A stretch of 40,786 bases of DNA from Candidatus Thorarchaeota archaeon (GCA_016840855.1 JAEORO010000061.1:1-40786); one strand, 5' to 3'; numbered from the stretch's first letter, positions 162-34,633 are shown. Translations and numbers: made by a program. The notes: generated by a model from the letters alone, not told the origin.

Positions 162-998
162 TTAAAGCAATTCAAGACCTTCTTTCCTTAGTTCTCTGTA
201 GTTTCTCAAATTTTCAGGAATATATGCATCAAGAAAGATATTCAGTATTTGCTCAGAGTCTCGTTCAATTCCATAGCTCTCAAAGTATCTGAGAACATTG
301 CAAATGTCACGTCGAAGGACTAGTTCCACCTTATTCATGTCTGACCACTTATTAACAGCCTCACTCTGAGGTACATCAATAATCCAAGGTTTATTTCTCC
401 ACCAGAGTATATTGTATGCACTAAGGTCTCCGTGTACATAGTGAGCATCTCGGTACATCAACAGGTACTGGTCGAAAATCTCATTCAATACAGCCTCAGG
501 ATCCTGCAACGCAACTTCTCTTAGCTGAGGAGCTGGAGTTTCTTCATCGCCTATGAACCTCATTGTAAGGTAATTAGCCACTCTAGAAATAGGAGTCGGA
601 ACTCTGACTCCCGCATTATAACAGTTCTGAAGAATGTCAAATTCAGCGACAGCGATATCCTCAATCAGTCCTAAAATCCATCGTGTCTTTTTTCCACTAG
701 ATTCTCTGATGTGGCCTTTTGTTGTTGATAGCTTATGCGGAGTAGCCCATAGTCTGTATGCTTTCAGTATGATGGGATGGGTGTTCCAGAGAGCAAGGAA
801 TATCGAAGCCTCTTTTCCAGCACTCATAGGATAGAGCACATCTGTGGCTAAGCCAAAGTTAATTGCATCTCGACGAATTTCATCAAACTGCGGCTCCGAC
901 ATCACTGCTTTTCCACTTGTGCCACCTCGAAGCGAGTCTCGTTTCTGGTCTATAGCACTACCCTTCGCGAGAGGGTTGAATTTATCTACTCGACTCAT
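162..998 (-). CDS. RIO-family atypical Ser/Thr protein kinase (RIO1-like)
   Basis: P-loop MSAGKEASIF, catalytic loop YVHGDLSAYNIL, metal-binding WIIDVPQ, RVPTP and RRDICN motifs typical of RIO kinases. Confidence 0.92.
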   Translation of the reverse strand: MSRVDKFNPLAKGSAIDQKRDSLRGGTSGKAVMSEPQFDEIRRDAINFGLATDVLYPMSAGKEASIFLALWNTHPIILKAYRLWATPHKLSTTKGHIRESSGKKTRWILGLIEDIAVAEFDILQNCYNAGVRVPTPISRVANYLTMRFIGDEETPAPQLREVALQDPEAVLNEIFDQYLLMYRDAHYVHGDLSAYNILWWRNKPWIIDVPQSEAVNKWSDMNKVELVLRRDICNVLRYFESYGIERDSEQILNIFLDAYIPENLRNYRELRKEGLELL

Positions 999-1798
999 TC
1001 ATAAACCCCCAAAATAGTGGACTCGTCGAAATTCCGCTGATTGTTAGGAACATACTCGGAAAGGAACACCTTCACAATCTCGTCCGGGTCGCGCTGGATT
1101 CCATATTTCTTGAAATATAGGAGTAGATTAACGATATCTCGACGTAAGAGATTTACAACACTACTCATATCAGACCAAGGACCAACCTGGGAGGCTTGAG
1201 GCATATCGATAATCCATGCTCGACCTTCCCACCAGAGGATGTTGTAAGCACTAAGGTCTCCATGAACATAGTTAACATCTCTATACATGATAAGGTAGTC
1301 ATCAAGGATTTCATCCAGGATAATGTCGGGTTCTTCAAGCTCAACATTCCTTAATTGAGGTGCAGCCTCTATCCCATCACCAATCAACCGCATAGAAACA
1401 TAGTTTCCTACTCTGCCAATAGGAGTGGGGACATTCATTCCTGCTTTGAAACATGCTAAGAGCAAATCATACTCCTTTGCGGCAATAGCTTGCATTCGTC
1501 CAGGAGCAAAAAAACCCTTACTCTTTCTTGCTTGTGCAGACTGCCAGAACCTATATGCCTTAAGGATGATTGGGAAATCTCTCCAGTACGCCAGATAGAT
1601 TGATGCTTCCTTTCCCGCATTCATCTGATAGAGGACCTTAGTAGCTAACCCAAAGCTTGTAGCATCATTCCTGACTTCGTCTAGAGTGATCTCATTAATC
1701 GCTACAGTCCAACCCCTATTATTTCCTCTTTGGGCATCTCTTTTGATAGAGAGCGCACTTGGTTTTCGAGGATTGAGCTTCTCAACTACGGGAGACAT
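995..1798 (-). CDS. RIO-family atypical Ser/Thr protein kinase (RIO1-like), tandem paralog
   Basis: MNAGKEASIY, YVHGDLSAYNIL, WIIDMPQ; SD GAGGTG 9 nt upstream; ATGA overlap with the downstream paralog. Confidence 0.92.
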   Translation of the reverse strand: MSPVVEKLNPRKPSALSIKRDAQRGNNRGWTVAINEITLDEVRNDATSFGLATKVLYQMNAGKEASIYLAYWRDFPIILKAYRFWQSAQARKSKGFFAPGRMQAIAAKEYDLLLACFKAGMNVPTPIGRVGNYVSMRLIGDGIEAAPQLRNVELEEPDIILDEILDDYLIMYRDVNYVHGDLSAYNILWWEGRAWIIDMPQASQVGPWSDMSSVVNLLRRDIVNLLLYFKKYGIQRDPDEIVKVFLSEYVPNNQRNFDESTILGVYE

Positions 1799-2380: not shown

Positions 2381-4087
2381 ATGGCAAATCCGAGCAATCC
2401 TCTCATAGTGCAATCTGATAAATCAGTGCTTTTAGAAGTAGACAATCCGCTATACGAGGAAGCTCGTGATTCTCTAGCTCGTTTCGCTGAACTCGTGAAA
2501 AGCCCTGAGTATGTTCATACCTATCGAGTCACACCACTTAGTCTTTGGAATGCAGCTGCCATGGGGATGATGCCAGACGAAGTTATTGCTGCATTGGAAC
2601 AGTTTGCAAAATACCCCATTCCAGGAAATATAGCAAGAGAAATTGTTGACTATATGTCAAGATATGGCCAACTTTCTCTCTATAAGGAAGGACCAGATCT
2701 TCTCCTCTTATGCGAGGATGAAGATCTTGCTGAAGAACTATGGTCGAATAAGAAAATCAAAGACCTCCTCATCGACCGTGTTGATGCAGTGACTCTGCGA
2801 GTCGACCCAGGTCAGCGTGGGTTTCTAAAACATGCTCTTATTGAAATAGGACACCCAGTTGAAGACATAGCTGGATATGTAGAGGGAGAGCATCTGCCCT
2901 TTGAGATTCGAGATGTAACTCTTGAGGGCAAGAAATGGGGTCTCAGAGCCTATCAGGAAGATGCAGTGGCTATCTTTTATTCAGGAGGAGGTGTAAAGGG
3001 TGGTTCAGGCGTTGTTGTTCTTCCATGTGGAGCTGGGAAGACCATGGTTGGAATTGGTGCCATGTATAAACTCCAGACTTCTACAGTCATTCTCTGTCCG
3101 AACGTCGTAGCTGTGAGACAATGGATTGCAGAACTTCTTGACAAAACCACACTAAAACCAGAAGATATTGGTGAGTATACTGGTGATAACAAAGAGATTC
3201 GTCCTATCACAGTCGCAACCTATCAGATTCTGACTTGGCGAAAGTCAAGAGAAGATGTGTTCCCACACTTCAAGATCTTTGAAGCAAGAAACTGGGGTCT
3301 AATAATCTATGATGAAGTTCATCTACTTCCTGCGCCTGTTTTTCGAGTAACAGCAACAATCCAAGCAACAAGAAGATTGGGACTTACTGCAACTCTAGTT
3401 CGTGAGGATGAGAAAGAAGAAGATGTTTTCAGTCTAATTGGTCCAAAACGATTTGATATGCCATGGAAACAACTTGAGGATCAAGGTTGGATTGCTACTG
3501 CCATTTGTTATGAAATTAGACTTGACTTGCCTGATGATATGCGAAGGCCATACGCTTTGGCTGAAGACAGGAAGAAATACAGAATCGCTGCTGAGAACCC
3601 CTTGAAGATTGAACTGATTCACAAGCTACTGAAACATCATGTAAATGATAATGTCTTGGTAATAGGGATGTACCTTGATCAGTTGAAGTTGATTGCAGAT
3701 GAAGTTGGTGCTCCATTAATCACCGGAAAAACAAGCAATGATGAACGACAACGTCTCTATGAAGCCTTCAAGGAAGGAGAGGAGAAGATATTAATAGTAT
3801 CAAAAGTTGCAAACTTTGCTCTTGACTTGCCGGACGCAAATGTTGCGATTCAGGTTTCTGGAACCTTCGGATCTCGTCAAGAGGAAGCCCAAAGGTTGGG
3901 AAGGATTCTTCGACCAAAGATAGATGGCAGTTTTGCTCGTTTCTATTCGCTTGTCACAAAAGACACAAGAGACATGGATTTTGCTGCAAAACGTCAACTG
4001 TTTCTTACTGAGCAAGGTTACCAATATGTAATTGCATCAGCTGGTGAAAATATCTGGGAAACACCTCCAGAGAAATTCTTCAACTAG
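2381..4087 (+). CDS. xpb: DNA repair helicase XPB (Ssl2/Rad25 family) with N-terminal Helicase_C_3/XPB-NTD domain
   Basis: N-term PLIVQSDKSVLLE...FAELVKSPEYVHTYRVTPLSLWNA; Walker A VLPCGAGKT; DEVH; RED motif TATLVRED; motif VI QRLGRILR; KRQLFLTEQGY. Confidence 0.95.
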   Translation: MANPSNPLIVQSDKSVLLEVDNPLYEEARDSLARFAELVKSPEYVHTYRVTPLSLWNAAAMGMMPDEVIAALEQFAKYPIPGNIAREIVDYMSRYGQLSLYKEGPDLLLLCEDEDLAEELWSNKKIKDLLIDRVDAVTLRVDPGQRGFLKHALIEIGHPVEDIAGYVEGEHLPFEIRDVTLEGKKWGLRAYQEDAVAIFYSGGGVKGGSGVVVLPCGAGKTMVGIGAMYKLQTSTVILCPNVVAVRQWIAELLDKTTLKPEDIGEYTGDNKEIRPITVATYQILTWRKSREDVFPHFKIFEARNWGLIIYDEVHLLPAPVFRVTATIQATRRLGLTATLVREDEKEEDVFSLIGPKRFDMPWKQLEDQGWIATAICYEIRLDLPDDMRRPYALAEDRKKYRIAAENPLKIELIHKLLKHHVNDNVLVIGMYLDQLKLIADEVGAPLITGKTSNDERQRLYEAFKEGEEKILIVSKVANFALDLPDANVAIQVSGTFGSRQEEAQRLGRILRPKIDGSFARFYSLVTKDTRDMDFAAKRQLFLTEQGYQYVIASAGENIWETPPEKFFN

Positions 4088-5007
4088 GAGAGAAGAGCTT
4101 TCAATCGAGATAATTTCGAATCTGTATAATCCACGACTGCAGACCAGACTCTTGATGTAGGCAAACTCGGTTCTATAAGCCCAGACTCTGATGAAAGGAG
4201 TCGTTCTAGAGACCAGGCAATTAGGTAGATGAGGACGAGAGGTCTTAATGAATCTACATCTACAACTTCATTTGAGTAAAGCAATCCCGGTGGGGGGTAT
4301 TCATGAAAATCAGCAGATGCTTCAAGAAGGTAAGCAAAGTCATAGTACTGATTCCCATATGCACAAGCTTCGAAATCAAGGAGGATGACTTTTCCATCTT
4401 GGAAGATAATGTTAGGAACCCATAGATCACCATGCATCAATGAGCACTCCCATGCACCTAGAGTATCAGTGTAAGAGAGAGCTTCATAATAGAGATCATT
4501 AAACGAAGCAACCAACATATCTAGCTCTTGAGAACACATAGACAATCCTTCATGTTTTTCAACAAGTGTGTGAGCTGCAATAAGGAAGTCTGAAGGTGAT
4601 TTGTATTCTTTGAGGCCGGGAGGTTTCTGTGAGGAGAGGTTTAGTAGACACTCTTTCAAAGAAATTATCTCTGTAGTTGTAAATTCTGTGAGTGTGTTGT
4701 GAATCACTCCATCAATATATTCGAAAATAATGAATGGAGTTGCTTTTGAATCGTTGAGTCGCCCCATGTATAGAGGTAAGGGAGAAATGCCTCGACGGTT
4801 GAGGAACAAGCTTACATCGTAGAGTTTCTTGTACGGTTGTAATCCAAATGATGAAACAGAACACGGTAGTTTCAGAATAAAATCAATGCTATTGGATTGT
4901 CCACGGATGTTAATGTTTGACCAACCTCCTAGTGCCTTACCCTCTAGACTTACAGCTGTATCAAATAGGTCGCATGCATCTCGTAGTAAGGTTGCTAGCT
5001 CAACCAT
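4084..5007 (-). CDS. Aminoglycoside phosphotransferase/choline kinase-like (APH) family protein
   Basis: Brenner motif LMHGDLWVPNII, ILLDFE, YYDFAYL. Start uncertain: ATG 5007 preferred, ORF extends to 5064. Confidence 0.8.
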   Translation of the reverse strand: MVELATLLRDACDLFDTAVSLEGKALGGWSNINIRGQSNSIDFILKLPCSVSSFGLQPYKKLYDVSLFLNRRGISPLPLYMGRLNDSKATPFIIFEYIDGVIHNTLTEFTTTEIISLKECLLNLSSQKPPGLKEYKSPSDFLIAAHTLVEKHEGLSMCSQELDMLVASFNDLYYEALSYTDTLGAWECSLMHGDLWVPNIIFQDGKVILLDFEACAYGNQYYDFAYLLEASADFHEYPPPGLLYSNEVVDVDSLRPLVLIYLIAWSLERLLSSESGLIEPSLPTSRVWSAVVDYTDSKLSRLKALLS

Positions 5008-5101
5008 CGTATGTCCATGAACCGTTACCAGTGGACGATTTATCATCGCGAAGTTTCTAATCACGGCAACTTCTAAAAGGCTGTCGGGTGCAACTCAAAT
5101 C

Positions 5102-5389
5102 ATGAATGGAAGAGACCTACTTCTAATTCTTACACACCTTTTCCGAAAGAAAGGAAATCCTGTTTGCTTGGAAGATGCAGTAGAGTTCATCTCATTCAGA
5201 TGCAGGTACGGAAAACCAAGTCAAGTTAGACGAATGCTCACAATGGCAGTAAAAAATGAAATGATTACTAGAATCGAGGAATTAATACGAGCTGACTTTC
5301 TTTTTGATAATCAAAAGCTATCTCCCAATCTTGCAGCTGAATTATGTGAAAGACTCATGGTAAGTAGTGATATCAACCCAATGTTCTAG
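5102..5389 (+). CDS. DUF2240-like small archaeal protein (wHTH-like)
   Basis: Pattern LFRKKG...EFISFRCRYGKPSQVRRMLTMA..NEMI matches my recollection of the archaeal DUF2240 N-terminal region. Confidence 0.6.
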   Translation: MNGRDLLLILTHLFRKKGNPVCLEDAVEFISFRCRYGKPSQVRRMLTMAVKNEMITRIEELIRADFLFDNQKLSPNLAAELCERLMVSSDINPMF

Positions 5390-6498
5390 TTTTCTTCTGC
5401 GCCAATAGCTTGTAGAGATGCTAGAAGCGCAGCTATATGAATAAAGGCATTCTTTCCTTGTAGAAGACGATAGTCAATCTCAGCGACTCTATCGAGAACC
5501 TTTGTAAGTGTTTGAGGCGAAAATGGCCGTTTTACAAGATCTCGTTCTATCTCAAGACAAACCTCTTGAGGTGAGTAATCCTCAATTGCCATTAGATTAC
5601 GAACTTCTTTTCGAGCTTGTTCATATTGGCCATCTAGTGCAAGATTCACTATATTTCGAGCCCGCAGTGTTAACATAGTTTCAGAGTGCTCATATACGTT
5701 ATCTTCTGTTACAACATCACTAGCAACCGATGAAACTTGAAGTAGGTTAAGAGCACGTCTCAAGTCACCAGAAGACTCTCTTGCGATAGCTGCTAATGCT
5801 GATTCCTCAATAGTGACATTTTCTTTTGATGCCACCTCTGCGATAAAACTTTGAATTAGTTCATCCGGAAGTGTTGAAAAATTAAGGGCAAGTGACCTTG
5901 AGATAATTGCTGGACTCCAGCCTGAGAGGGAAGGAGTAATGAGAATGAAGCGGCAGACATTACTATATTGTTCCATAGTTCTGCGAAGTGCTTGTTGCAT
6001 TCCCCAAGTTAGTGCATCAGCTTCGTCTAGCATTAATATTTTGATTTTCTCATCAGCTACGGTAGCTGTTGATGCAAAAAACCGAATGGCTTCTAATAGT
6101 ATTTCACTTCTTGTTGGATCGCCGGAACGACCTCGTGCATTTCGAGCAGTTTTTGCCTCACGAAAGACTACAGAAATGTATTCATCCAATTCGGATCTCT
6201 GGTCACGTCCAAGCTTAGCCAGATCTTGAACAGAACGCTTAGCCTTTGTCACAGGAATGTCCCATATATCACGGATGTTTAGAAACTTGAAGTTGGCGCT
6301 AAAACTATCACCGAGAATCTCCTTTGAGAAGATTTCAGCAGCGGCTGTCTTACCTGTTCCTGAAGGTCCATAGAAGATCATATTTGGGAAAACATTGGAT
6401 TTTGCGAGAGATTTCAACTGATTGATTGTATTCGCTCTTCCAATAAAATCAGCCCATGTCTTAGGCCGATATTTTAAACTCCAAAGGACAGGCTCCAA
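5386..6498 (-). CDS. rfcS: Replication factor C small subunit-like AAA+ clamp-loader subunit with ~50-aa insertion
   Basis: WSLKYRP box, GPSGTGKT, LDEADAL, QQALRRTME, SRS (SRC motif), GDLRRALNLLQ, C-terminal collar domain; TTG start with GGTGA SD. Confidence 0.88.
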   Translation of the reverse strand: MEPVLWSLKYRPKTWADFIGRANTINQLKSLAKSNVFPNMIFYGPSGTGKTAAAEIFSKEILGDSFSANFKFLNIRDIWDIPVTKAKRSVQDLAKLGRDQRSELDEYISVVFREAKTARNARGRSGDPTRSEILLEAIRFFASTATVADEKIKILMLDEADALTWGMQQALRRTMEQYSNVCRFILITPSLSGWSPAIISRSLALNFSTLPDELIQSFIAEVASKENVTIEESALAAIARESSGDLRRALNLLQVSSVASDVVTEDNVYEHSETMLTLRARNIVNLALDGQYEQARKEVRNLMAIEDYSPQEVCLEIERDLVKRPFSPQTLTKVLDRVAEIDYRLLQGKNAFIHIAALLASLQAIGAEEN

Positions 6499-6663
6499 TA
6501 TTTCACCCAGAATCGGGTCATATCCATTGTAGATAAGCTTGTTTCTTTTTCTATCAGAGCTTTCTCTCTCCTTTAGTCAGAAATTTGTTAAAACCAAAAG
6601 CTCCTTAAATACTCAAAAGCTGGGCGCATGTTTGCAAGGATAACTCTGTGGTCGGAAAAAACA

Positions 6664-8382
6664 ATGCCAAAGGAATCTCTAGAAAAAGAACTCGAACATA
6701 TCCTTAGAGAGGACTTGCTTGTTGCATGTCAATATTGGTCGATTGATGTAACAGGAAAGGATAGTGGATCTTCTTTGATCAAGATGCTTGCTGAGAAGAT
6801 GAAAATGCCAGAAGAAAGGACACGAGTCTTTGCAACCTTTTCTCCACTCGAGCGCGACCTTCTTGGAATATTAACTCTTAGTGGAGGTGCTATGAGCTAT
6901 GACAGACTTAAACCTTTTAGAAAAATATATAGCTATGGCCAGCTAAATCAAACTGAAAGAGACCTTAGAAAGAAAGGTATAATCATCAGACGAATGATGT
7001 CACGTTTGACTGAATTCGGAAGGGAAGTTGCTGAATTCAAAGTATTAGATTTCTTCATCCCGCATCTGAGAGACCTTTTTGAATCAAAGCCAGAACCTAC
7101 ACCAGAGGAACCAAAGAGGGCAAAGAATATCGAAAATGAACGAGATTCCCTACTCATAGATATGCTCCTTCTTGTGTCGTACCTAGCTAAGAAAGAAGTC
7201 CATTTAACAAGTGCCTGGGAATTTCCAAGGAGAGAGATTGATAATATCAAGGCATCAATGTCTAAATCTACTGATGAGCGTTTTGAGTTAGTACAAAAGA
7301 TGGCTCGGAAGATGGGAGCCTACGTTGTGGGAGAAGGAGATAGGGTTCAACCATCTAAGGTTGATCTACTCTTTGCAGGGGGATACCATAATGTTGCTCG
7401 TCGACTCCTGTTATCTCAGCTTGGTAGAACAAGAGCTATTTGGGCTACACCGGACCAACCTACAGAATACACCCTCAACTTGGCGATTTGTAGACTTAGA
7501 GAGAGTTCACCTGATGACTGGGTAAGTGTAGAAGAACTAAGAGATTGGATAAGGAGTGAGTTATTCATAGAGAAGCAGGAGTTGAAATGGATTCAGGTTG
7601 ATGATGACAGGGTTCAACTCTCACTTGAAACACCAATTCTCTTAGGATTAGTTGACGCAGCTTACAGAGGGAAAAAGCTCCTTGCAGTTAGACTAACAGA
7701 TGTAGGAGATATTGTGCTCAAAGGAATACCGCATGATAAAACACTGGGAAGAGACTCGTTCTTTGTTTTGCCTAACTTCGAAGTCACTGTCTTTAGTACA
7801 GAAATGGAGTACCATAAAATGTATCGTCTCATGTTGATCACAGAACCGGTTAAAACAGATGTAGTGAGTACATTCAAAATTACAGACAAATCCGTTTTCG
7901 ATGCAATAGAGATAGGTCTGCGTGAAGATGATATACTTGGCTTCCTTGAAAAGGAGAGCAGTAAACCTATTCCACAGAATGTCGTTAGATCAATAACTGA
8001 TTGGACATCACAGACTACATTTACAACAATAGCGGATGTCACACTCTTTGAGACCCAAAACGAACAAGACCTTGAAGATTTGATGTTGATACCAGATTTC
8101 ACAAGACAGATCGTTAGAAAAGTGGGGCCCACAGCAGTGATAGTATCTGGTAACATCGAGGAACTAAGTGCCAATCTTCGAAAGCATAAGTGCATGGTGC
8201 GACGAAAAACCAAAGATGAAGAAATTGACTCTTCGAAAGATTCCTCTGTTGCAGAACAATTCTTGCTCTATGGTGAAGATCAGGGAGTTGAGGATGTTCC
8301 CAATCAATGTGAGGGGTGTCCTGCAGTTCCATCATGTAATAAAGTCATTCGAAGACGGAGTCAGACAAAAAGGGGGGGGTGA
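6664..8382 (+). CDS. XPB-partner 'helicase-associated domain' protein (Helicase_C_3 domain; p52/Tfb2-like)
   Basis: C-terminal VLPNFEV...VSTFKITDKSVFDAIEIGLREDDILGFLEKESSKPIPQNVVRSITDW is the Helicase_C_3 signature, also seen in the XPB N-terminus; N-terminal helical/wHTH-like segments. ORF extends to ATG 6628; 6664 preferred given TTAAATA at 6605. Confidence 0.8.
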   Translation: MPKESLEKELEHILREDLLVACQYWSIDVTGKDSGSSLIKMLAEKMKMPEERTRVFATFSPLERDLLGILTLSGGAMSYDRLKPFRKIYSYGQLNQTERDLRKKGIIIRRMMSRLTEFGREVAEFKVLDFFIPHLRDLFESKPEPTPEEPKRAKNIENERDSLLIDMLLLVSYLAKKEVHLTSAWEFPRREIDNIKASMSKSTDERFELVQKMARKMGAYVVGEGDRVQPSKVDLLFAGGYHNVARRLLLSQLGRTRAIWATPDQPTEYTLNLAICRLRESSPDDWVSVEELRDWIRSELFIEKQELKWIQVDDDRVQLSLETPILLGLVDAAYRGKKLLAVRLTDVGDIVLKGIPHDKTLGRDSFFVLPNFEVTVFSTEMEYHKMYRLMLITEPVKTDVVSTFKITDKSVFDAIEIGLREDDILGFLEKESSKPIPQNVVRSITDWTSQTTFTTIADVTLFETQNEQDLEDLMLIPDFTRQIVRKVGPTAVIVSGNIEELSANLRKHKCMVRRKTKDEEIDSSKDSSVAEQFLLYGEDQGVEDVPNQCEGCPAVPSCNKVIRRRSQTKRGG

Positions 8383-9416
8383 ACCTGGATAGTCTCTTAC
8401 CCAAGGAATTGGCAGGTCATTTCTTTGGTGTAGGGAGCCTTGGAGAAAAGGACCCCGTAGTGCCTTTAGATTATGTGAAGAAACTCAAACTTCCTTATGC
8501 CTATAGTATACCTGCAAGACAAGAGGAAGATATGATAAGGCAATTTGCAGTTTTAGTGGAAGACTTTGAACAGCTAGGAACTTTCATTCTTGATGTGGAC
8601 ATTCACAGCTATCGAGAAATGACAAGCACTGATGAACCCCTCATGTTTGACAAAGAGCATGGACATAGTTCCTATCTCATGATAGATGGCTCCAGCTACT
8701 CATTCTTCAAGACGCAACAAACAGCACCAGCTACAATGTGTTTTAGTATCAGAGATAGTAATGGAAAGCAACATGTTACAAGAAATATGTTTTATTTTTT
8801 CCAGAAACTTATGATAAGAATAGCAAGAGGACAGGTTGAACACTTTAGACACGCTTGTGATAATCTAATACTTTGTCAAGATGATCCAGGATTAGGACAT
8901 GTGTTTGAAGCGATTATACAAGGAAAAGTGCTGGGACTGAGTCTAAATGAGATTGTTCAAAAAACTGATGACATCTATCCGGATTCGGTAATTCCTGCAT
9001 ATCATTATTGTGATGACTGGCGTCAACTTGTACTCGATGGGTGGTATCCACTCTGGGAGGGTAAACCAAAGTTGGTCCATATCGACGTGATTCGATATCT
9101 CCCAGAGATTGGAGAAGAACAGGCTGAGAAGATCAATTTGTTCATGAAACAAGGAGGAGGTCTTGCGCTCGGAGCGCTGCCTAATACGGATGACTCATAC
9201 TCTAAGCCAATCCTTGAAACGCTTCAATTCAATCTCTCTCAAAGTTTTCACTGCTTAAAGGATAGTGGTGTCGATTTGGGACTTTTGAAAAGGAACGCCA
9301 TGGTTTCAACTCAATGTGGTCTTTCAGGAGCAAGCCCAGAATTGTCAAGAAGAATTCATGAGGAGAGCTCTAAATTCAAAGAGATGTTTCTTCAAACTAT
9401 TGAATCCTCGACCTAG
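8379..9416 (+). CDS. Cobalamin-independent methionine synthase catalytic-core-like (URO-D/CIMS) protein
   Basis: GVGSL N-terminal motif, LCQDDPGL (cf. QxDEP), HYC and STQCGLSGAS putative Zn ligands; single barrel length; GTGA overlap with upstream gene. Confidence 0.65.
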   Translation: MNLDSLLPKELAGHFFGVGSLGEKDPVVPLDYVKKLKLPYAYSIPARQEEDMIRQFAVLVEDFEQLGTFILDVDIHSYREMTSTDEPLMFDKEHGHSSYLMIDGSSYSFFKTQQTAPATMCFSIRDSNGKQHVTRNMFYFFQKLMIRIARGQVEHFRHACDNLILCQDDPGLGHVFEAIIQGKVLGLSLNEIVQKTDDIYPDSVIPAYHYCDDWRQLVLDGWYPLWEGKPKLVHIDVIRYLPEIGEEQAEKINLFMKQGGGLALGALPNTDDSYSKPILETLQFNLSQSFHCLKDSGVDLGLLKRNAMVSTQCGLSGASPELSRRIHEESSKFKEMFLQTIESST

Positions 9417-22159: not shown

Positions 22160-25100
22160 CTACTCTTTCTTTCCTTCTAGGCTTTTAACAAGTTCATCGA
22201 CAAGGTCACGAGGTAACGCTTTTGCTTGTTCAATAATTGTTTCGATCTCATGCGGAGGCACCCCTTTTTGTTCAAGATCTCTTCGTAGCTCTTCAATTTC
22301 GTAGAGAGTCATTTTATCTTGCTCTATTTCCGGAGTTTCGTCAACTGGCTTTTCATGCTCAGGAGTGATGATCTCCTTGTGAACTACTTCATCTTTTTCT
22401 TCCTCTTCAAGAAAGACTCTCTCTTCATCTTCAGGCTCAATAGCTTCAACGGGTTCTTCCTTTTCCTCGCCTCCGAGCCGTCTTAGAGCTTCTTGTTGAA
22501 TATTCGCAAGGGTTTCTTCTATTGTCTTCCCTTCGCGACGAGCTGAACGGATTGCCTCTTGCATTATGACCTCTTTCACGAACGCTGCCTGCTCACTCAT
22601 CTTCATCTTTTTGATATCAGCTTGGAACTCATCAAGTTCCTCAGCACTTAGATGAGTGAGGATTGCTAGTTGCATGAGGAGTTCGCCCATTTCTGGAACC
22701 TCAATAGGTATGGCTTCTTCAGGCATTTGCGCTGCTGTTCGTGTAATCTTTAATTCCTCGAAGGTATCGTTAAAGAGCTCCGCAGTAAGCTGTTGTCTGC
22801 TTTTTACACCACTGACTGGTTTTGGTACCTTACCCTTCTTGAGAGATTTCAGCTGACCATTTATTTGACGAATTCTCTTTGGGACACTCCAAATTTTCAC
22901 ATAGGCTCCTAGCAATACGATGATGAATATGCTAATTGGTAGACCATAAAATGTGATGTTTATCAATAGCTTATCGAAATCATTGGCCTGTGGACGTATT
23001 TCAAAATTGATTATAGCGTCTTCATGAAATGCCAGACTCATTACTATTCTAATAGAAGAGAAGTCTCCATAACCTACAGCTCGAATTACTATTCGATAAT
23101 AACCATTTCCTAGAGACGAGTTGCTGCTAATGATAGCTGTTGTACCAGATTCAATGGTAAATGAAGCACCAGCAACACCCCAACCATGCCACGTGTCATT
23201 AAGATAGAAATCAAACGTTAAAGTTTCTCCATTAATCATTGTGTAGACTAGTTCAGTATCAATTACCTCACCTTCGTGAAGTATTTCTGTTGGCGTTTGA
23301 ATGAGTTTGATATTGAAATATACAACTTGGAGCTGCCGATGGTCATCAAAGATACCGATTTCAAATTGGAAGTATTTTCCTTCTATTATGATTGGTCCGG
23401 TATGACGGTCATATAATGATGCATTACTTGTATCAAATGTGAAATTATAGTAACCAAATCCTTGTTGAAAGACGATTGGCATAGTGCCTATGAAGTAATC
23501 ATTAGCTCTCATTTCGGTGTAATCGGTGAAGTTTGCATTAGTGATTCCACCAAATAATCCTCCCACTGTACTAATATCATTATAGAGTAGTGAGATGTCA
23601 ATTGTATCGCCCATTGGAAGTTGGAGGTAGTATATTCCTTGTTCAAATGATATAAAGTTCTGATCAGGAAAATCAACAATCAACTCAGTAGGTCGCTCCT
23701 CAACTCGAATATAGAAACTAAACGAACGTTCCTCATAATTGAGTAGGAAGAATGCAGTTGTTATTCGTTCACGCACATTGGAATCCAGTATGGTTGTATC
23801 GATAAAGAGGGAATATGTTCCATTTCCTAGGTCTGTTGCATTAAAATCAAGGTTACCATAGTTGTAAGTTACTAATGCGCCAGATACATATCTCGAGTTA
23901 TAGTCATCTGAGAAATTAAGTGAGATATATCCAGTCCAACCCCAATCTAATTCGATAATTTCAGTGGGTCCTTCGATGCTTGTTGGAATCTTCTTTATTG
24001 TTAAAGTCATGCTAGTTAAGGTATTGGCTAGAGTGGTATTAGTTGGGTATCCATAGAACGAAACTCCCACCGTACCAAATCCAAGGATAGAGGTATTGAA
24101 TGTGAGAGTCCAGATACCACCGCCAATCGATGTGAAGTTTAGATAAATGTCACGTGTTGAATCGATCCAACTAACATTGGCATCATCAATTAGCATACTA
24201 ATTGCATTAGCAGTGAAATTAAGCTGCAATGTGACATTCTGGAGATAATAGACCTCAAGTTTTGTCGGGTCTGGAATACCAATGACTTTAAGCTGCGTTG
24301 CGGTTTGTCGAATATAAATCTTGAATTGATTAACTGCTGGATCATAGTTTCTGAAACTAGCAAAAATCTGTATATCATAAGATAACAGTGCTTCTAGAAT
24401 AGTTGCGTTTCCTGGTATCGTAACATCCCATCGCCCTGAGAAAACATCATAGGACATATAATATTTCAATCCTTCCAGCATTGCGTAAACTTGGAGATAT
24501 CCAGACGCATTTCGAACTTGAGTGCTATCGATTGAAATGCTATCGGTGATGTCCCAAAGTTCGATTTCAATATAGACAGGGTCGCCCCTGTTTACCGGAG
24601 TTACTGTTTCTGTTGGATCATAGAGTATTATTTCACTTGGGAGAGTCATTACTACTAATGTTATGGTTGTAAGTGCTACTGTGTACTTGTCTTTCATTGC
24701 TGTAACTGTAATAACATATGTTCCGGCACCAAATCCAGTTGTATCTATAATTGTAGTATATCGACCTGTTGACCCAAACTCAACCAGTGGTCCACTATCA
24801 ATTGTAATCCCAGACACCTTGTATTCCCAGATAACACTCAACGCACTTGAGATTGACACATCATTAAGTAGATCTCGGTATTCCACCCAAACATCAGCAC
24901 CACTCTTCCAGTCTACTGTGACAGATGTTTCATCAGGTGTTAGAACTGTATTGATTGCGATCACATTGAATTGTGGTGTTACAGTCACTGATGCATACAC
25001 AGAAACAGCTGCAACAATTCTTAGTGTGTAAGGTCCTAGAGTTGTCAAATCTGAAGTGCTGAAACTAATGTTGTAGATACCTGATGAACCATACTCGTAG

Positions 25101-28100
25101 ACAACCAAGCTTGCAGGTGTTGTTCCACTAACGAGGTATTTTATGTTTGATGCGAGTATTGCAGAATATCCAGTAACTGGAAGTACATGGTCCAAATCAC
25201 TCCAAGTCACATTAAGCGAAACAGTGCCCGTATATTGGACTGATGATGGAACCAACGCATTGACCTGAAGTGATGTCCTAACTAAGTCAACTAAGCCAGT
25301 CAAAGTTACAACGGAACGATTTGAATAGAATGGTGGGAGACTAGGATTCCATTGCACCTCAATATCAAATAGAAATGTTCCAGTACCAATCAATGAGAGA
25401 GTATCAACATTGAACACATATATTCCAAGCCCTTCACTTGTAGTGTAGTCAATACCTTCCTGCAAGAAATGACCTTGGCAGCTGAATAGAATTATTGCAC
25501 CTTCAATAGGATTGCCAGTATCAAGGTCAGAAAGGTTGATTGTTATGTCTAGAACATCGCCTTTTGGTGTACGCTCGATTTGATCTGTTTCAACAAGAAT
25601 GGAGCGACCTGTTATTGTTATCTTGACAATCGTGTAATCATCACCATAGAACGGGTCTTGCGCAACAGGCCAATCCACAGCTACTCGAATCGATAACCCT
25701 GTTACAGGAATTGTAGTAAGCACTATCGATGAGATGGTAAGCTCGTAAGTGCCACTAGTTTCAATAATGCTATAATCAAGTTGATTAATTTCAGTCATGT
25801 TGGGCCAATATAGATGAATGATTGTTAGATCAGCAAGTGAAATGGATGTACCTGCGTCGAGATCATTGAACTCAAACTCGAAACTAACATCATCCAAAAA
25901 CAACGTCTGTGATGGAGGGACTGTCACTTCCAAATTAGTAGCTCTTGTTCTAACAAGTACAGAAACATCTCGTGAAGCATCATTATGATAAGGCGCTCCG
26001 GTCCAATCAGCCTGGATGTTCAGTACATGCGTGCCAGGGTTAGCTACGGAGGTTGTAAAGAATGTTACTTCATAATATCCTGGACTTCCTTCAGAAACTA
26101 CATAATCAGAAAATTCTGTGAATCCTGAAATCAAGATTACAGCACCTGCAATACCCAACCCATTAGCATCCTCATCGCTAAAGTAGACAGTGAATATCAC
26201 ATTATCAAGATAGGGAGTTGTTTCCGGTTCAGTAATGAGAGCAAGGGAAGATAATCTACTTCTTACCTTGAAGGTCACCTGTGTTTCTTTTTGAGCATAG
26301 AATGGCGCCTGAGGCGCATAACTCATTTGTATTGTGAATGTATGTGAAGTTCCAGGAAGCCAGGTTGCATCCCAACTCGGGTTCCATGAGATATTCAGGA
26401 GATAATTCTGCTCAACAGGTCTCCAAGTTGAAGTAAATGTCTGACCAAGCACCTCCACCGTCACAGGATAGCCGTGTGCAGCATCATTGGCAATTGGGAC
26501 TGAAGTGAATAAATCAACGTAACTAACGACAATTATGATAGGAGAGCCAAATGGTACATTAGCCACTGGGTTCGCAGCAACAATAGTAGCTCTTTCAAGA
26601 ACTGTAAAAAGCCTGTCGAGGAATTTTGGAACAACATAGTAAAACACTCCAATAGACATCTCAACTCTCAAAGTATCAGTACCTGGACCCATAGCATAAG
26701 TTGTATTCAATGTCACCTGGTATATGCCTGGTGAAATCTCAACATAGGTATATTTACCTGAGTCAATTGGCGTTGCACCTTCCTTCAACACAAGTGTAGC
26801 CGCAGTAATTGGAATAGAAGCACCTTCTGTTGTATCAGTCCAAGTCACATTGAAAATTACAAGGTCACCATACTGCGTGGGCGGTGGAGTAAGATATTCC
26901 AGTGTTGTAATTCGTTCTTTGACACTGATGTAGGTAATACGACCAGTTCTGTTTGCATAGAATGGAGAACCACTCCATGTCACATCAATGAGAATCGCTT
27001 TGATTCCTAAACTACCAAACTGTCCTGTATCGACTGTGATTGTGAAAGTCCCACCACTTTCGACATATGAGAAGGAAACATTCATTGATATTGTCAGTTT
27101 AGGATCATCGTTGATGAGCATACCACTAGTAATGTCTTCGAATCTGAGTGTGAATTCTGCATCCTCGTTGTAACTCGTCGATGGTGCAGGTGTGATTGAA
27201 AGAAGCGTGTTCCTTGGTAAAACTCTGATTGAAATTACATCTGTTCGGTTAGAGTAGAAGGGTGAAACACCTTTAGACCAATTGACGAAGACATTCATGT
27301 AGATTATGCCAGTCCGACTAAAGATACTCGTGTTAAACTCGACAGAATACTTCCCAGCTTCTGTTGATGAAAAGTCAGCGATTATGATATCAGATGGGTC
27401 GACGGTTTGATCTTGGAAACTGACATAGATGAAGACATTTCCGGTGAGATTATCGATTCCGATGCCACTGAACAGGTCACTATAGAAGAAGATGTATCCC
27501 ATGTCTTCATTATATGGAGTAGGCTCAGAACCTAGGAGAAGAGTAAGAGCAGACTCTCTGCCTACGACATTCGCAGATGTAACAAATGACTTGTCTTTAT
27601 ACTTAGCAACTACTCCAGTCCAGTCCGCATATACCGTGAATGTTTGAAGTCCAAGTCCGAATTGCCATGCAGGGACTTGAATTATATAGAATCCATCTCC
27701 AAGAACTAAGTCATAATCATAACTTGAAATAACAGGACCTGATAGATTGGATACTGAAAATATGACCAACGCAGACTTGATACCAACTGCATTATCTAGG
27801 TCCCCGTAATATACTGAAATATTGAATGTACCAATGGTGCTGGTAGGTTCAATTGAACTCACAATCCTAAAGTCTGTGTTATGAGTCCTAATTGTTACAG
27901 TAATCGAAAATTGCACTGTCTGATAGTTTTCTTTAAGGAACGTGAATGTGTAGACTTGATTCTGAGCTATAGTATCAGAGTCAGAGGTTCGAAATGTTAT
28001 CCTGTATTCTTGATTCAATGGCACGTAGACAACTGAGAAGTTGCCCCAAGTTGAAATGACTTGGGTATATGGGGATGTCAGATTATCGATTGGCAGAATC

Positions 28101-31100
28101 CGATCAAGGTCGGTGTAATCAACCGTGAAAACAACTGAATTTCCAATCGGTATATCCAAAGATCCAACTGATGGTGTAACCGATGTGTAAGCATCACGGA
28201 TGACAATTCTGAATTGCAGTGTTTTTGCATCATATCCCGATTTATATGCAGTGAGACTTATGTAATGAGTGCCTTTTGCTAGGGTAGAAACATCAATCCA
28301 AACACTGTAGACTCCACCTGTTTCGTCAGTTGAGTTAGCAATCCACGCTTGATGGTCTGGTGATGTAATTGTTGCACCTTCAATACCAGTTCCAAAATCA
28401 GCATCTGCATATTCGAGAATAATCTCTACATCTAATTGGTAGGGAGTTGTGACTTGAGGATAGTTGGGAGATGAGAGATAGCTAACAATTGGTCGATATG
28501 AGAACTGGATGATGAGATGAGCGTTGCTATATTCACTATCCCATGAGGTGAAGTAGACAGTAATTTCGTAACTACCCCCAGGTGATAATTGACCCCAGTC
28601 AATAGTCAGTTTATATAACCCAACTGCATTCTGAGATGTGTCAAGGGATATTGTGTAACCTGGAACGGAGAACTCTCCTGCGGCACGTCCAATGATGGGG
28701 TTTCCATAGTATTGCCCGGCTTCACTTATATTGAGATGAAGATCAACGACAAAGTCAGAACCAATTGTGAAGTTGAATGCTGATGGACCTGTGTACAGAG
28801 TTGAGATCATGCTTCGTATTGTAACTGTAAATTGATAGCTTGATGGAGCACTGTAGATGGTCCCACTCATTGCTACATTTACAGTCACCGTCCAAGACCC
28901 AACATCCCATGTGCTTGTGTCCAGAATGATAGCATAGCTTCCAAAATTGTCTGTGCCAAAGTTGTGTTGAAGTTGAATATTTGAAACTGAACCAATGGGT
29001 ACGGGTAGACCTGTTTCAAGATCTGTAAGGACAATTGTCAACTCAGTCTGATTGCCATATGGTTTTGTTATGGCACCTGTTACAGTCAAAGATGTTTTGT
29101 GAGCAAGTATTTGAATTGTGAAAAGGTATGGCGTAGGAGCTTGGATTTTAATATTAGACATTACGATGTTCAAAGTTGCAGTGACTGACCCCACATTCCA
29201 ATCAGCAGTCGTTAGGGTTGCAGAGTAGGTTCCAAATACATCTGAAAGATAACCGCCAGTGTAACTGAAAGTTAGTGTGCTCACATCAGAGATACCTACC
29301 TCAGACTCCGTGTCCAAATCAAATAAGAAGACATTGACCTGTGTATCGTTTCCATAAGGTGTTGTCATATCACCGGTGACGGTGACAGCAGTTCGATGAG
29401 CTCGAAGGGTGAATGTTACGTCGACTTGAGCTTCATGAAGGTATGCTCCAGATTTGGTTGCATTGAAAACGTATTGATGATTTCCAAGACTAAGGGAATT
29501 GGTTGGAATTGCTATGTCATAGGTGCCATCACCGTTGTCGGTGACATATTCAACTGGACTACCATCATCGTATGTGATCGTCGCACCTTGAATTGGTGCA
29601 CTTGTATATTGATCTCTAAATATCAGAGTCGCTGTGAAATTAAAGTCAGCAGGAGTGGTTGTAATGCCAGATGCTTGCAGTCTGGTGCTATGATACAGGT
29701 CTATGTCGAAATACTCTGTTGCATTATTATAGTACTGGTGATAGGACCAGACATTGATATGCCATTGTTTGTTATCACCAAGACTCGTTGTAGATAGCAC
29801 CTTTCCATATAGACCACCACCATAGTCATTCAAAGTGATTGTGGAGGGAGTGGTCCAGTTCATTTTGACAGTGGCACCTGTAACTCCCTGAGTGGTGATA
29901 TCATCAGTAAGCTCATACTCAATTATGAGTGAATCACCAGCAGTCTTCACTGATAGTCGGTCGCCAACAGCATCGAGTGGTTCGTTAAGTGTCAAAGTTG
30001 TAGGGTGACGTACGATGAACGTCCTCTCAAAGAGACCAGTCTTATTTGAAACTGAATTACCTGTGTCATTATAATATGCTACAGCCGTCCATTGACCAGC
30101 GGGTGCGGTAGAGTCAAATTGAGTTTCGAGAGTATGATCAGTAGAGGCTCGTTGTTGTTCAGTGCCACGACTAAGAAATGTCCCTGTGTTTAGTTGGTTT
30201 TGAGCCTCGGTTCTGAGCCATTCAAAGTCCCGGAAGGTGTTTGAGACTCGGAACTCATCAAGGGATCCTGGAAAATAGCCAGTACCGTAAATACCTGAAT
30301 CATACTCTCCACCTCCTAATCGCCATTCTTCAACGTATGATACATTAACATAGGTTGTTGAGAGTAGTTGATCAGTGCTTGCCCATCCGTTGTTCACCCA
30401 AATAGCATTATTTTCAGGTGCATCCTCATCAACATAACAAGCAATGAAAAACCATACATTTGCCGCCCATGATGTAATTGTGGAAGTCCATGTGTAGGCA
30501 GCCCCTTCCGATGAACTCTCGACCTTGAATACGAGTGACCCAGGAGCTACTGATCCACCATAATTTGTTCCTGCTAACGCTATAGCCATGTTATGCGTCA
30601 TATCTGCATACTTTTCCATGATTACTCTTGTATTAGGCGAGGTAGAACTATGAGAAGAAGAAAGTCTGAACCAGCCAGATATCAACACATCATTATTAGG
30701 AGTGAGTGTTTCGTCTATTGATATATAATCACCAATACCATCAAATGTTTGGCCATAACCAGCCCTTGCAAGTTGGGCTGTTTGCTCATTTCCATTGCGA
30801 ACACCATTATAGTTGTTACCTGATGAGTCATAATGGGTAGGGCCAGAAATAACAGACTCTCCTAGATGCCAGACAGCTTCAAAGTCATTAGACCATACTC
30901 CTGATGGATTCTCTAGATTATCAACTACAGGAGACCCATAGTACATCGTAATGTAGTTGTCAACTCCTGCTGTTAAATTCGTCTTGACCCATGCGACAAG
31001 AAGTGCGGTGTTGACTGGATAGTTTTGCTGGAAATTTTCAATCTCATGGTCTAGAATCGTGTCGCCTGATGCAAACAGGATATCTGATGCATCAGAACGA

Positions 31101-34100
31101 ACCTTACTTGGATTATGTAGATCAGTATCTGTGAATTGTACCAAAACTGGAAAATTAACAACAGTACCATAAATCTGAGAAGACGGAATTGTTATTACCT
31201 TACGATATCTGAATGATGGAAACTTATGAGCTGTAGATGCACTTGTCTGATTAAATGAGGAATACCATGTGTCTCCATTTGGTTTAAGAAGATCGAGACC
31301 AGCTCGGGCACCGTAAATCGTAGGTGTTGTAATTGTGAATTTGGCTGCTTCATCAATGTCAAAAGCCGTATTATTAATTTGAAGGTCTTGTAGGAAGTTC
31401 CAGCTTATGAACTTGAGAGTCCAGACACCCCAGAAATCAATCGATGCCGGGTTAAGCGTCAATGTTCCTCCTTGATACCACCAATCAGAACCTAGTGCTT
31501 TTGGTTTATCAAGGGGATTGAGAACCTTAGTAGCTTTCCACTCTGCTCTTGGATATTCCACAGAGAATCCAAGTGATGTTGCCCCAGCAGGAGGCGAAAC
31601 CATTACCTTTGCTGTCCAGTTGACGATATTTGAACCACTCTTAATGAAATAGCTGACACCATTATCGAAGTTTTCATCCATTGTTTCAACTATGCCGCCA
31701 ATGTCCATTACTAGATTGACATTTAATGTAACTATTCCAGCGGATGAAGTTGTGAAGACAACCTGAGTTTCGCCAGCTTCAACCCATGTGTCAGGAATTG
31801 TTTCTTCAGCACCAACAGAATAGAAGGCAGCTGTATTGTCTTGATTGTTGTACTCTGTTTCTATCCACTCTGGAGAAAGAATAGCATTAGAAACTCGGAT
31901 CTCATCGAACATCCCTAGAAACCGACTTGCTGCATCAAGCTGATGTCCGCCCCAGAGCCAAGTTCCAAGAGAGGCAAGTTGCGTCCACTGTGCTGGTACA
32001 TTTTCTATCGTTAGAACTAATGGCGCGCCATCAAGGTATATCACAACAGATTTGGTTGAATAGTCTAATGTCACTACTAGATGCTGCCATATGCTGTTCG
32101 TGAATGGATTTGTCGCCAGGTTATAATCAGAGCCACTTCCACCCCAAGGATAGAAGAAGTTATCACCATCAGGTTGTACTGCAAATTCAAAGCCATCAGT
32201 TTGGAGAAGTGTGGGAGGTGGAGTAGGATTCAATGCGAAGCGATCGCTTGTTGTCAGGATACGTTGGTATCCCCCATCCGAAGAATCCAACCAATTAATC
32301 CAAAGCGATATAGTACCCCCAGATTTTACTGAATCCAAACTTGGACTCTCAAGAACATTAATCATGTCATCAATCCCATCTAAATCGAATCCACTACCAA
32401 TATGACCTGTGACCAAATCTGAACTGCTCATGCTTCCCAAAGTTGTACCATGATTATTGTATTGGCTGCTATCATACACTGGTCCCGTTGGACTTTCATC
32501 TAAATGCCATACACCAACATAATCATCCCACACCGTTGCCCTTCCTACAAGCTCTGCTTCTGGATTTCCATACGCCATGGTGATGACAGTGTCAATTGAG
32601 CTTGACAAAAGAGGCACCTTCACCCATGCCACAAGATGCGCCTCTGTTGGACTATAATCTTGGTCAAAGAGCTCGATCTCATGGGCTAGAGGTGTTCCAT
32701 CAATTGTGAAAATAATATCGTTTCCATTTGCTTGTACATGATCTTTCAAATCAGAATCGACTAAATCAATTAGGACCGGAAAATCTGTTAGATCTGCAAC
32801 TACGCTAGTGTGGTCAATTGTGATGTCCTTTTGATACTCAAAGAAAAGAATGTTATCTTCGGGTTCCGGAAGTACATATTCAACAAATAAACGCGCTCTA
32901 TCTTCACCGGAGAAACCAGCTGTACCCTTTATACCATTCCAACGTGTATTGGATGTACCTGAATACATGTGCGTCAACATGAAACAGATATAGTTCCCTG
33001 TGGACCATCCAGACCTGCTTATTACACTCTGCACGAGTGGACCTATCTCTGGTGATCTATATCGAGTGTCAAAACTTGTTTCCCAAGAAGTGAAACTCCA
33101 ATCTATGCTTGTTTCAACCCAACTTTTAATCCAGTCCTCAAGATGGGTTCCATTTGCCCATGAATATGGCACACTGAAAGATTGTACAGTATCTTGATCT
33201 GCAACATAAACCCTCATTCCTAAAAGATATGGACTCGAGCTGTCAATAGCTTCCACTTCAACATAGGCGGAAGTGATGATTGCTCCTTGGGGGATATCCA
33301 ATGGAAACTGCATTCCCGTTTCGAAAAGACTTCCAGCAAGGAATGACCCATATATGCCAGTATCAAGTTCACCGATAGGCCCACCATCGTATCCATCAAG
33401 ATCAATACCGTTGAAGCCATCTAGAAAATCGCTATTGTCGTCGTAACAATCTCTACCATCATCGTCAGGCACATATGGATAAACACTATGTGTTGTAGAG
33501 CCCCAAACAATTGTGCCATTCGCCTTCAGGTCAACCTGTTCAGGAAATGGTCGAACTGTGAGATCCAATTGGACATCATCAATGTACGCATATGCATTGG
33601 ATGCTGATGTTTGAGTTACACTTTCATCCGTAGCAAGTCCAATATCAAAAAGGAGAGTATGAGTCGAGAGACCAGTCATCGAGGAAGCTGGTATGGTAAG
33701 TGGACTAGTCGTTAACCATGTGTCAGTCGTATCGCCTGACTCAAACACATGATATTTGTATGTGTATCCTGCAAGTCTGACGAAGATGTGTACTTTGTCG
33801 TTCATAGTGGAACTTGAACTTACCCGGTATCGAAAACTGATTTGAGCGGAATAGAGCTCTCGATAGGGCATTGACACCATTTGACCAATGTAAATCTCAT
33901 CATTAGGATTAGCATCATAACTAGTAGTCAGTTGTGCTTCAAGGTATACTCCCCAGGTCCCTCCAATCCCATTGGGATCGCTATCCAATTCGTAGAAACC
34001 ATGCTGTGGATGTTTATTATCATCAATAACGTTCTTTATGACAGTCCAACCATCAGGTACATACACAGCATCATCATTTTGAGTTGTGTCAGTGGTAACT

Positions 34101-34483: not shown

Positions 34484-34633
34484 AGAACGGCCTCCTCTTA
34501 TACTGTCAACCAAAAGCCCATACAACACATGTCTGCATTCTCTCAAGTATGGACTCTGAGCAACAGTTCCAGTATACTCTAATGTATAAGAAGTTGTTCA
34601 GGAGATATTACATTCTGTAGAAAGAAAACTCCG

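Follow-up and report, generated by a model that had tools for sequence, protein, structure and literature searches.

How does an archaeon come to carry a pair of genes resembling the XPB-p52 sub-module of the eukaryotic transcription factor TFIIH, and does such a pair bear on the origin of that complex? The question is raised by a 40,786-nucleotide stretch of DNA (referred to throughout as the window) from a Candidatus Thorarchaeota archaeon (GCA_016840855.1 JAEORO010000061.1:1-40786). It contains, between positions 2381 and 8382 on the plus strand, a gene for the helicase XPB and further downstream a gene for a protein with a second copy of the XPB N-terminal domain. The original prediction, made from the sequence alone, had proposed an XPB-p52-like complex relevant to the origin of TFIIH in a probable Asgard archaeon, and Thorarchaeota are indeed Asgard archaea. 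Our analysis indicates that the two genes are likely to be a prokaryotic counterpart of the TFIIH XPB-p52 translocase sub-module, probably derived from bacteria, and relevance to an Asgard origin of TFIIH was not borne out.

A long-form XPB

The upstream gene (2381..4087, plus strand) codes for a 568-residue protein that, by sequence, is an intact long-form XPB, an ERCC3/Rad25-type ATPase and double-stranded DNA translocase of helicase superfamily 2 (SF2). It matched the NCBIfam model NF045503 (repair_heli_XPB) with 855.8 bits against a cut-off of 610, over profile positions 1-547 of 548. Its N-terminal domain (residues 8-134; 2402..2782) belongs to Pfam Helicase_C_3 (PF13625; E 1e-34), as had been claimed, and is followed by a DRD-like alpha/beta domain ending at about residue 161 and by a motor (2942..4054) consisting of RecA1 (ResIII, residues 188-340) and RecA2 (ERCC3_RAD25_C, residues 365-558). 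All of the motifs quoted in the original prediction were present in the translation (VLPCGAGKT, DEVH, TATLVRED, EAQRLGRILR, KRQLFLTEQGY). The Walker A motif GAGKT, DEVH, the RED motif and motif VI were intact and located in invariant columns of a 54-sequence alignment, the invariant residues being G217, G219, K220, T221, D311, R341, E342, D343, Q504, R505, G507 and R508.

The best PDB sequence matches were yeast Rad25/Ssl2 (E 1.5e-92), followed by human XPB (E ~1e-83). Solved archaeal XPBs of the XPB-Bax1 system (PDB 6P66, 6P4F; PMC7672443) have a motor of the same SF2 family and matched in the RecA domains at only 1e-40 to 1e-34. They differ in having a short, DRD-only N-terminus and the nuclease Bax1, usually encoded beside XPB, as mate, whereas the Thorarchaeota XPB carries Helicase_C_3 and has a non-nuclease partner; the Pfam domain XPB_DRD was not found in it by Pfam scan. 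Bax1/DUF790 (PF05626) gave no match at E ≤ 1 in the window or in the 3.36-Mb assembly, although control genomes were matched. The assignment of this XPB to the long bacterial/eukaryotic type, rather than the type that works with Bax1, and the reported absence of Bax1 from the window both hold. The assembly (92% complete) encodes one XPB-type helicase, with one weak ERCC3_RAD25_C match elsewhere, and the only Helicase_C_3 matches in the genome scan were XPB and its partner.

The partner protein and its likeness to p52

The partner gene (6664..8382, plus strand) codes for 573 residues and falls under the name 'helicase-associated domain-containing protein'. An upstream ATG at 6628 extends the open reading frame (ORF) to 584 residues (6628-8382); the start at 6664 is probably right because homologues align from residue 13 of the longer frame. 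Residue numbers given here are those of the 584-residue ORF. No catalytic domain was found. The protein is predicted to consist of a winged-helix array (residues ~50-370; 6775..7737), a clutch-like domain paralogous to the N-terminal domain of XPB (374-465; 7747..8022), a C-terminal alpha/beta domain probably of the XPB-DRD/p8(Tfb5)/Tfb2C kind (470-520; 8035..8187) and a tail specific to Thorarchaeota (530-584; 8215..8379), all on the plus strand. The second domain copy noted about 2.5 kb downstream of XPB, with its F.IT..S...A...G.....I..FL.......IPQNV...I.DW stretch, was recovered by Pfam as Helicase_C_3, which spans residues 399-462 and scores 45.6 bits (cut-off 34.2; E 8.3e-12). The segment 8020-8195 (residues 465-522), earlier read as alpha/beta, was modelled in the order strand-helix-helix-strand-strand-helix.

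Likeness to p52 extends beyond the shared domain, as had been suspected. An alignment (A1) was built of 135 partner-family members drawn from a near-relative search and an exhaustive representative search (1139 matches, E ≤ 0.001), and the AlphaFold2 model made on it had a mean predicted local distance difference test (pLDDT) score of 88.2 and a predicted template modelling (TM) score of 0.81; only residues 1-9 and 530-555 were disordered. When this model was searched against the PDB with Foldseek, ranks 1-21 were all p52/Tfb2 chains (best E 9.5e-12), with XPB chains next (6e-5); alignments spanned 481-567 columns for full-length p52 chains and 334-396 for the partial structures 6TRS A, 6TRS B and 7NVV. 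VIA-align placed model residues 50-520 colinear with p52 26-458, and for model residues 171-520 against 7nvv_2 it aligned 263 of 289 residues. The A1 profile, searched against the PDB, found Chaetomium p52 best (6trs_A; E 9.9e-8, profile 222-469 with p52 91-328), then human p52 (E 2e-6), yeast Tfb2 (E 2.3e-6) and XPB N-terminal domains. A Pfam scan of 38 of the 150 listed distant relatives detected Helicase_C_3 in all 38 and Pfam Tfb2 at E ≤ 0.001 in 15 (profile ~242-357; one above cut-off), together with a C-terminal WYL domain in seven. The modelled fold of the partner is thus well supported as colinear with the whole of p52/Tfb2, comprising winged-helix array, clutch and small C-terminal alpha/beta domain.

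Comparison of the partner and XPB families by hhalign paired partner residues 373-524 with XPB residues 3-161 (probability 99.2, E 9.9e-20, 154 columns). At the level of sequence, the last ~150 residues of the partner are a two-domain duplicate of the first ~160 residues of XPB, taking in both the N-terminal and the DRD-like domain. The C-terminal domain was also folded alone (residues 462-528, on alignment A3 of 31 Thorarchaeota and bacterial pieces; pLDDT 88.6). Its top 14 Foldseek matches among 350,542 chains were all p8/Tfb5 or Tfb2 C-terminal-domain chains, with weak scores (E 0.13-1.0, TM up to 0.63-0.71), and its resemblance to p8 and Tfb2C is most plausibly a matter of one small fold shared by the three.

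The tail has a low-confidence linker (pLDDT 33-60 across the tail region), a Cys motif and a basic end. The motif C-x2-C-P-A-x3-C-N was conserved in all 30 Thorarchaeota tails examined, and bacterial partners such as those of loci L047 and L048 stop ~17 residues past the C-terminal domain. The tail, to which nothing in p52 corresponds, may serve to bind metal or DNA.

Linkage of the two genes across genomes

Helicase_C_3 was found in 44 of 201 Asgard genomes, 40 of which had at least two matches. In 33 of these 40 the two genes shared a contig and a strand, at a distance of 4.4-8.5 kb, and in the other seven the two matches were on different contigs of fragmented assemblies. The partner lay downstream of XPB in 32 of 42 Thorarchaeota loci, and nine loci end before reaching it. 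In one Thorarchaeota genome (G155:C3:670772-672407) XPB was read in two pieces with one in-frame TGA, possibly a broken gene or a sequencing error.

The bacterial comparison covered the 38 loci closest to the Thorarchaeota XPB, with 8-kb flanks. A partner-family ORF followed XPB directly on the same strand in 23 of them, often with a 4-nt overlap, and these partners include full-length matches to the hidden Markov model (e.g., L047 and L048, 516-522 residues). The bacterial pair was seen in Planctomycetota, Bacillota and one Pseudomonadota record, and relatives of the partner occur also in Chloroflexota and in a euryarchaeote. Fused proteins were found in both orders: in P0292 and P0294 the partner precedes a complete XPB, and in P0285 a complete XPB precedes the partner. 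Each of these three is a single-member metagenome cluster, so an artefact is possible.

XPB-partner fusions appeared among the bacterial metagenome proteins P0292, P0294, P0285, P0299 and P0304, one with a WYL end. High-GC Planctomycetota loci show long spurious ORF extensions that overlap XPB in another frame, and fusion calls there need care.

The bacterial and Thorarchaeota pairs share the XPB subfamily (NF045503 above cut-off, 45-63% identity) and the partner family. They differ in that the bacterial genes are adjacent, often overlapping and sometimes fused, whereas those of Thorarchaeota lie 2.5 kb apart with three ORFs between, and in that some of the bacterial partners are extended by a second repeat or a WYL domain.

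Distribution and phylogeny

The original prediction had suggested following the co-occurrence of the pair across Asgard genomes, and its spread turned out to be narrow. Besides the window's own genome, Helicase_C_3 was present in 42 of 43 genomes of the same family and in the one genome sampled from a second family of that order. None of 157 genomes from 25 other Asgard families yielded it. Among the 201 genomes the domain is confined to the Thorarchaeota order, where it is mostly paired. NF045503 scored above cut-off in 43 of 201 Asgard genomes, and the top-scoring genomes listed belonged to the window's family or its sister family in all cases but one (G185, just under cut-off). The other Asgard families have XPB-like helicases without Helicase_C_3, in one group of 440-570 residues, in which one member (L111) had an XPB_DRD match, and another of 660-740 residues.

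The longer group (loci L099-L106 and L114-L116; families f17, f20, f22 and f23) has an N-terminal extension of ~270 residues without a Pfam match, and some members align to XPB from residue ~80. These helicases sit on long branches that fall outside the clade of long-form XPBs.

In the 54-sequence alignment the Thorarchaeota XPBs were 45-63% identical to bacterial and 32-34% identical to eukaryotic XPBs. Their nearest relatives outside Thorarchaeota were bacterial, with 52-63% full-length identity (Pseudomonadota, Symbiobacteriaceae, Planctomycetota, Myxococcota, Bacillota). The partner is far more diverged than XPB, with 22-31% identity to bacterial partners.

The XPB tree comprised 78 rows and 566 columns (11 Thorarchaeota, 39 bacterial and 10 eukaryotic sequences, with XPB-like helicases from other Asgard families, 11 of the long and 7 of the short group) and was obtained by IQ-TREE quick search under LG+C20+F+G4 with posterior mean site frequencies (PMSF), with branch support from the Shimodaira-Hasegawa-like approximate likelihood ratio test (SH-aLRT). 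It was rooted on the short XPB-like helicases, and the eukaryotes were nine fungi or fungus-like organisms and one plant. Bacteria, Thorarchaeota and eukaryotes grouped together with an SH-aLRT of 100, and within this clade bacteria and Thorarchaeota formed a group (SH-aLRT 96) to the whole of which the eukaryotes were sister. The eukaryotic branch (SH-aLRT 100) had a stem of length 2.3 and the monophyletic Thorarchaeota (SH-aLRT 98) a stem of 0.12. The branches that nest Thorarchaeota inside bacteria, beside L047, had SH-aLRT values of 84-92. A partner tree of Thorarchaeota and bacteria only (29 rows, LG+G4) placed Thorarchaeota on a long stem of 1.46 without a supported bacterial sister, and it says nothing on the direction of transfer.

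The same genome encodes a bacterial-type UvrB (G000:C107:7089-9038; 1011 bits, above cut-off), which fits an uptake of bacterial repair genes. Given the narrow spread among Asgard archaea, the wide spread among bacteria, the short Thorarchaeota stem and this UvrB, we infer that an ancestor of the Thorarchaeota order most likely acquired the pair from bacteria. Ancestry of TFIIH through Asgard archaea is not supported: the domain was not found in the sampled genomes of other Asgard families, the Thorarchaeota XPB groups with bacteria, and the pair is a frequent bacterial operon. The pair is an old prokaryotic module and a cousin of TFIIH XPB-p52, not its demonstrated ancestor.

Comparison with TFIIH and earlier reports

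Set beside XPB-p52-p8 and Ssl2-Tfb2-Tfb5 of TFIIH (PDB 6NMI, 7NVV, 8EBS, 6TRS, 3DOM), the Thorarchaeota XPB is of the same long form with the same N-terminal domain, and the partner is likewise non-catalytic, with the same predicted order of domains and a clutch that in both cases is a paralogue of the XPB N-terminal domain. Several differences stand beside this likeness. The Thorarchaeota clutch resembles the N-terminal domain of XPB itself more than it does the clutch of p52, and only the Thorarchaeota partner has a Cys-rich basic tail. The 568-residue XPB lacks the N- and C-terminal extensions of eukaryotic XPB, which is 744-938 residues long in nine of the ten eukaryotic sequences. A search of the 92%-complete assembly for p8/Tfb5 (Pfam PF06331) gave nothing at E ≤ 1, and the XPD-like gene lies on another contig.

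A paper of 2012 characterises the XPB of M. tuberculosis and, in its accessible part, states that p52 has no bacterial homologue (PMC3353954). In the portion available of a 2026 article, Archaea are stated to lack TFIIH subunits besides XPB and XPD (PMC13153155), and the excerpt at hand of a review of the same year names XPB-Bax1 alone for Asgard archaea (PMC12993045). A 2026 preprint on structural homologues between Asgard archaea and eukaryotes does not mention TFIIH, p52, Tfb2 or XPB. We found no description of a prokaryotic p52 homologue in the full-text library searched, which leaves out most subscription journals.

Neighbouring genes

The two genes of the window are separated by 2.54-2.58 kb that hold two opposite-strand genes and a small ORF. 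Across the 42 Thorarchaeota loci the genes run RIO-RIO-XPB(+)-kinase-like(-)-ORF95(+)-RFC-like(-)-partner(+). Two RIO-domain kinase genes stand in tandem upstream of XPB (162-998 and 995-1798, minus strand), and an APH-family kinase-like gene (4084-5064, minus strand) is convergent with it, the ends overlapping by 4 nt; both positions are conserved in Thorarchaeota loci. The small ORF (5102-5389, plus strand; 95 residues) was present in 37 of 42 Thorarchaeota loci with 37-71% identity. In the search for a small p8-like protein it gave only a weak DUF2240 match (E 0.15), and its best matches to PDB sequences did not fall below E 0.17. The replication factor C (RFC)-like gene (5386-6498, minus strand) is a divergent small-subunit paralogue that scores 259 bits (cut-off 303), its match falling into two stretches and including an insert. 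It keeps its position across Thorarchaeota loci, and another contig carries the gene for the canonical RFC small subunit (454.7 bits). The RFC paralogue and the RIO kinases are archaeal genes within the window.

Immediately after the partner, overlapping its stop codon by 4 nt, is an ORF of 345 residues (8379-9416, plus strand) without a match in Pfam, NCBIfam or PADLOC, for which the Atlas gave only a lead to MetE-like (Meth_synt_2) clusters. It was present in 21 of 32 Thorarchaeota loci, missing from seven and cut off by the locus end in four; we did not count it in the module, since it is missing from seven of the 28 loci that reach its position. The window also contains a giant ORF of 4128 residues (22160-34546, minus strand) and a second of more than 1983 residues (34836-40784, plus strand) that runs off its end.

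Explanations for the pair

We regard it as likely that the Thorarchaeota XPB and its partner form a two-gene prokaryotic counterpart of the TFIIH XPB-p52 translocase sub-module, probably bacterial-derived. According to a structural study of TFIIH (PMC6422496), p52 residues 306-399 fold like the N-terminal domain of XPB, with which they make up a pseudo-symmetric dimer, and RecA2 is cradled by p8 and the C-terminal domain of p52. By analogy with the solved TFIIH structures, the clutch of the partner and the XPB N-terminal domain would form a pseudo-symmetric heterodimer and the C-terminal domain of the partner would sit against XPB RecA2; the partner would thereby hold XPB and tune its DNA-dependent ATPase/translocase. 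The operons and fusions lend such binding indirect support. More speculatively, the winged-helix array and the Thorarchaeota-specific Cys-rich basic tail might contact DNA or proteins, and the cellular role of the pair might most likely be DNA opening in repair. The kinase-like and RFC-like genes and the small ORF would have come between XPB and partner after the acquisition.

A number of observations weigh against this reading. The Foldseek TM-scores of the partner model to p52 are low (0.22-0.42), as is expected because the protein is elongated and its several domains are arranged differently from those of p52. The partner, unlike p52, matched neither Pfam Tfb2 (PF03849) nor Tfb2_C (PF18307) at E ≤ 0.1, and Tfb2 had no match at E ≤ 1 in the whole assembly; the isolated C-terminal domain had no Foldseek match at E ≤ 0.001. 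On the side of linkage, one Thorarchaeota locus (L044) had no partner in ~6 kb downstream of XPB, and 15 of the 38 bacterial XPB loci, which form one Pseudomonadota/Myxococcota clade, had none within their 8-kb flanks. The Thorarchaeota genes are not co-transcribed, since opposite-strand genes lie between them, and their synteny is weak evidence of linkage because the flanking genes are conserved in order too. As for bacterial origin, the bacterial rows of the tree were chosen as those closest to the Thorarchaeota XPB, with Actinobacteria and haloarchaea left out, and the branches placing Thorarchaeota within bacteria reached an SH-aLRT of only 84-92 in a quick search in which long branches meet, a situation in which, as the program warned, quick-search support is less reliable. 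In the approximately unbiased (AU) test (IQ-TREE, 39-row subset, LG+F+G4, fast search) a tree with the sampled bacteria held together was not rejected (p-AU 0.58 against 0.42), so the nesting of Thorarchaeota, and hence the direction of transfer, is without a statistical decision. A bacterial nesting of XPB, which the original prediction had named as telling against TFIIH ancestry, is seen in the best tree, while the alternative to it stands unrejected.

The points concerning linkage would suit a partner that works without XPB, as an independent winged-helix DNA-binding protein or regulator whose place in Thorarchaeota merely reflects inherited gene order: opposite-strand genes separate the two, conservation of order extends equally to the RIO kinases and other neighbours, so that synteny says little, and many bacterial XPB loci have no partner nearby. 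The WYL domain, found in seven of the 38 distant relatives, is typical of regulators. We nevertheless consider such independence improbable in view of the overlapping XPB-partner operons in 23 of 38 bacterial loci, the fusions in both orders, the co-occurrence in 40 of the 44 domain-bearing Asgard genomes and the use of the homologous domain pair as the XPB-p52 interface in TFIIH, as described in the part seen of PMC6422496. The WYL domains of some bacterial relatives, the patchy distribution, the apparent transfer between domains of life and weak matches of XPB to PbeA helicase models in PADLOC might also recall a mobile or defence system, with a helicase and an accessory sensor acting against foreign DNA. 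The PbeA matches cover generic helicase parts only and the Thorarchaeota locus lies in fixed order among housekeeping genes, which makes this very improbable; a defence system was rejected, the partner and the neighbouring genes having no PADLOC match at E ≤ 0.001.

Where the pair came from is a separate matter. If an ancestor shared by Asgard archaea and eukaryotes had possessed a proto-TFIIH XPB and partner, Thorarchaeota would have kept them, the other Asgard lineages would have lost or replaced them and bacteria would have gained them by transfer from archaea. Consistent with such a vertical relic, eukaryotic XPB, and not the XPB-like helicases of other Asgard families, joins the clade of bacteria and Thorarchaeota (SH-aLRT 100), a position of Thorarchaeota outside all sampled bacteria was not rejected by the AU test, and the partner has the full p52 architecture. 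Yet Helicase_C_3 occurs in none of the 157 genomes of 25 other Asgard families, the distance from Thorarchaeota to the bacterial phyla is about that between those phyla, with a stem of 0.12 against 2.3 for eukaryotes, and the XPB is 45-63% identical to bacterial but 32-34% identical to eukaryotic sequences. The pair is moreover found in at least Planctomycetota, Bacillota and Pseudomonadota, with partner relatives in Chloroflexota and a euryarchaeote, and we hold a vertical relic to be quite unlikely.

Meaning of the pair for TFIIH

The Thorarchaeota pair alone does not tie TFIIH to an Asgard host; its distribution and the XPB tree point to a bacterial-type module. It is possible, although we rather doubt it, that the TFIIH XPB-p52-p8 sub-module itself descends from the prokaryotic two-gene module and not from XPB-Bax1, the eukaryotic stem lineage having taken it up as a bacterial-type pair, as Thorarchaeota did. 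In that event the partner may have arisen by duplication of the XPB N-terminal and DRD domains onto a winged-helix array, p8 and the p52 C-terminal domain may be further copies of the DRD-like fold, and Thorarchaeota would be a living example of the intermediate state, a bacterial-type pair in an Asgard host. Should the partner bind XPB, the pairing of XPB with p52 would predate eukaryotes and could be tested directly with simple systems of two proteins taken from bacteria or Thorarchaeota, and it would help to show in what way the TFIIH motor came under the control of an inert paralogue.

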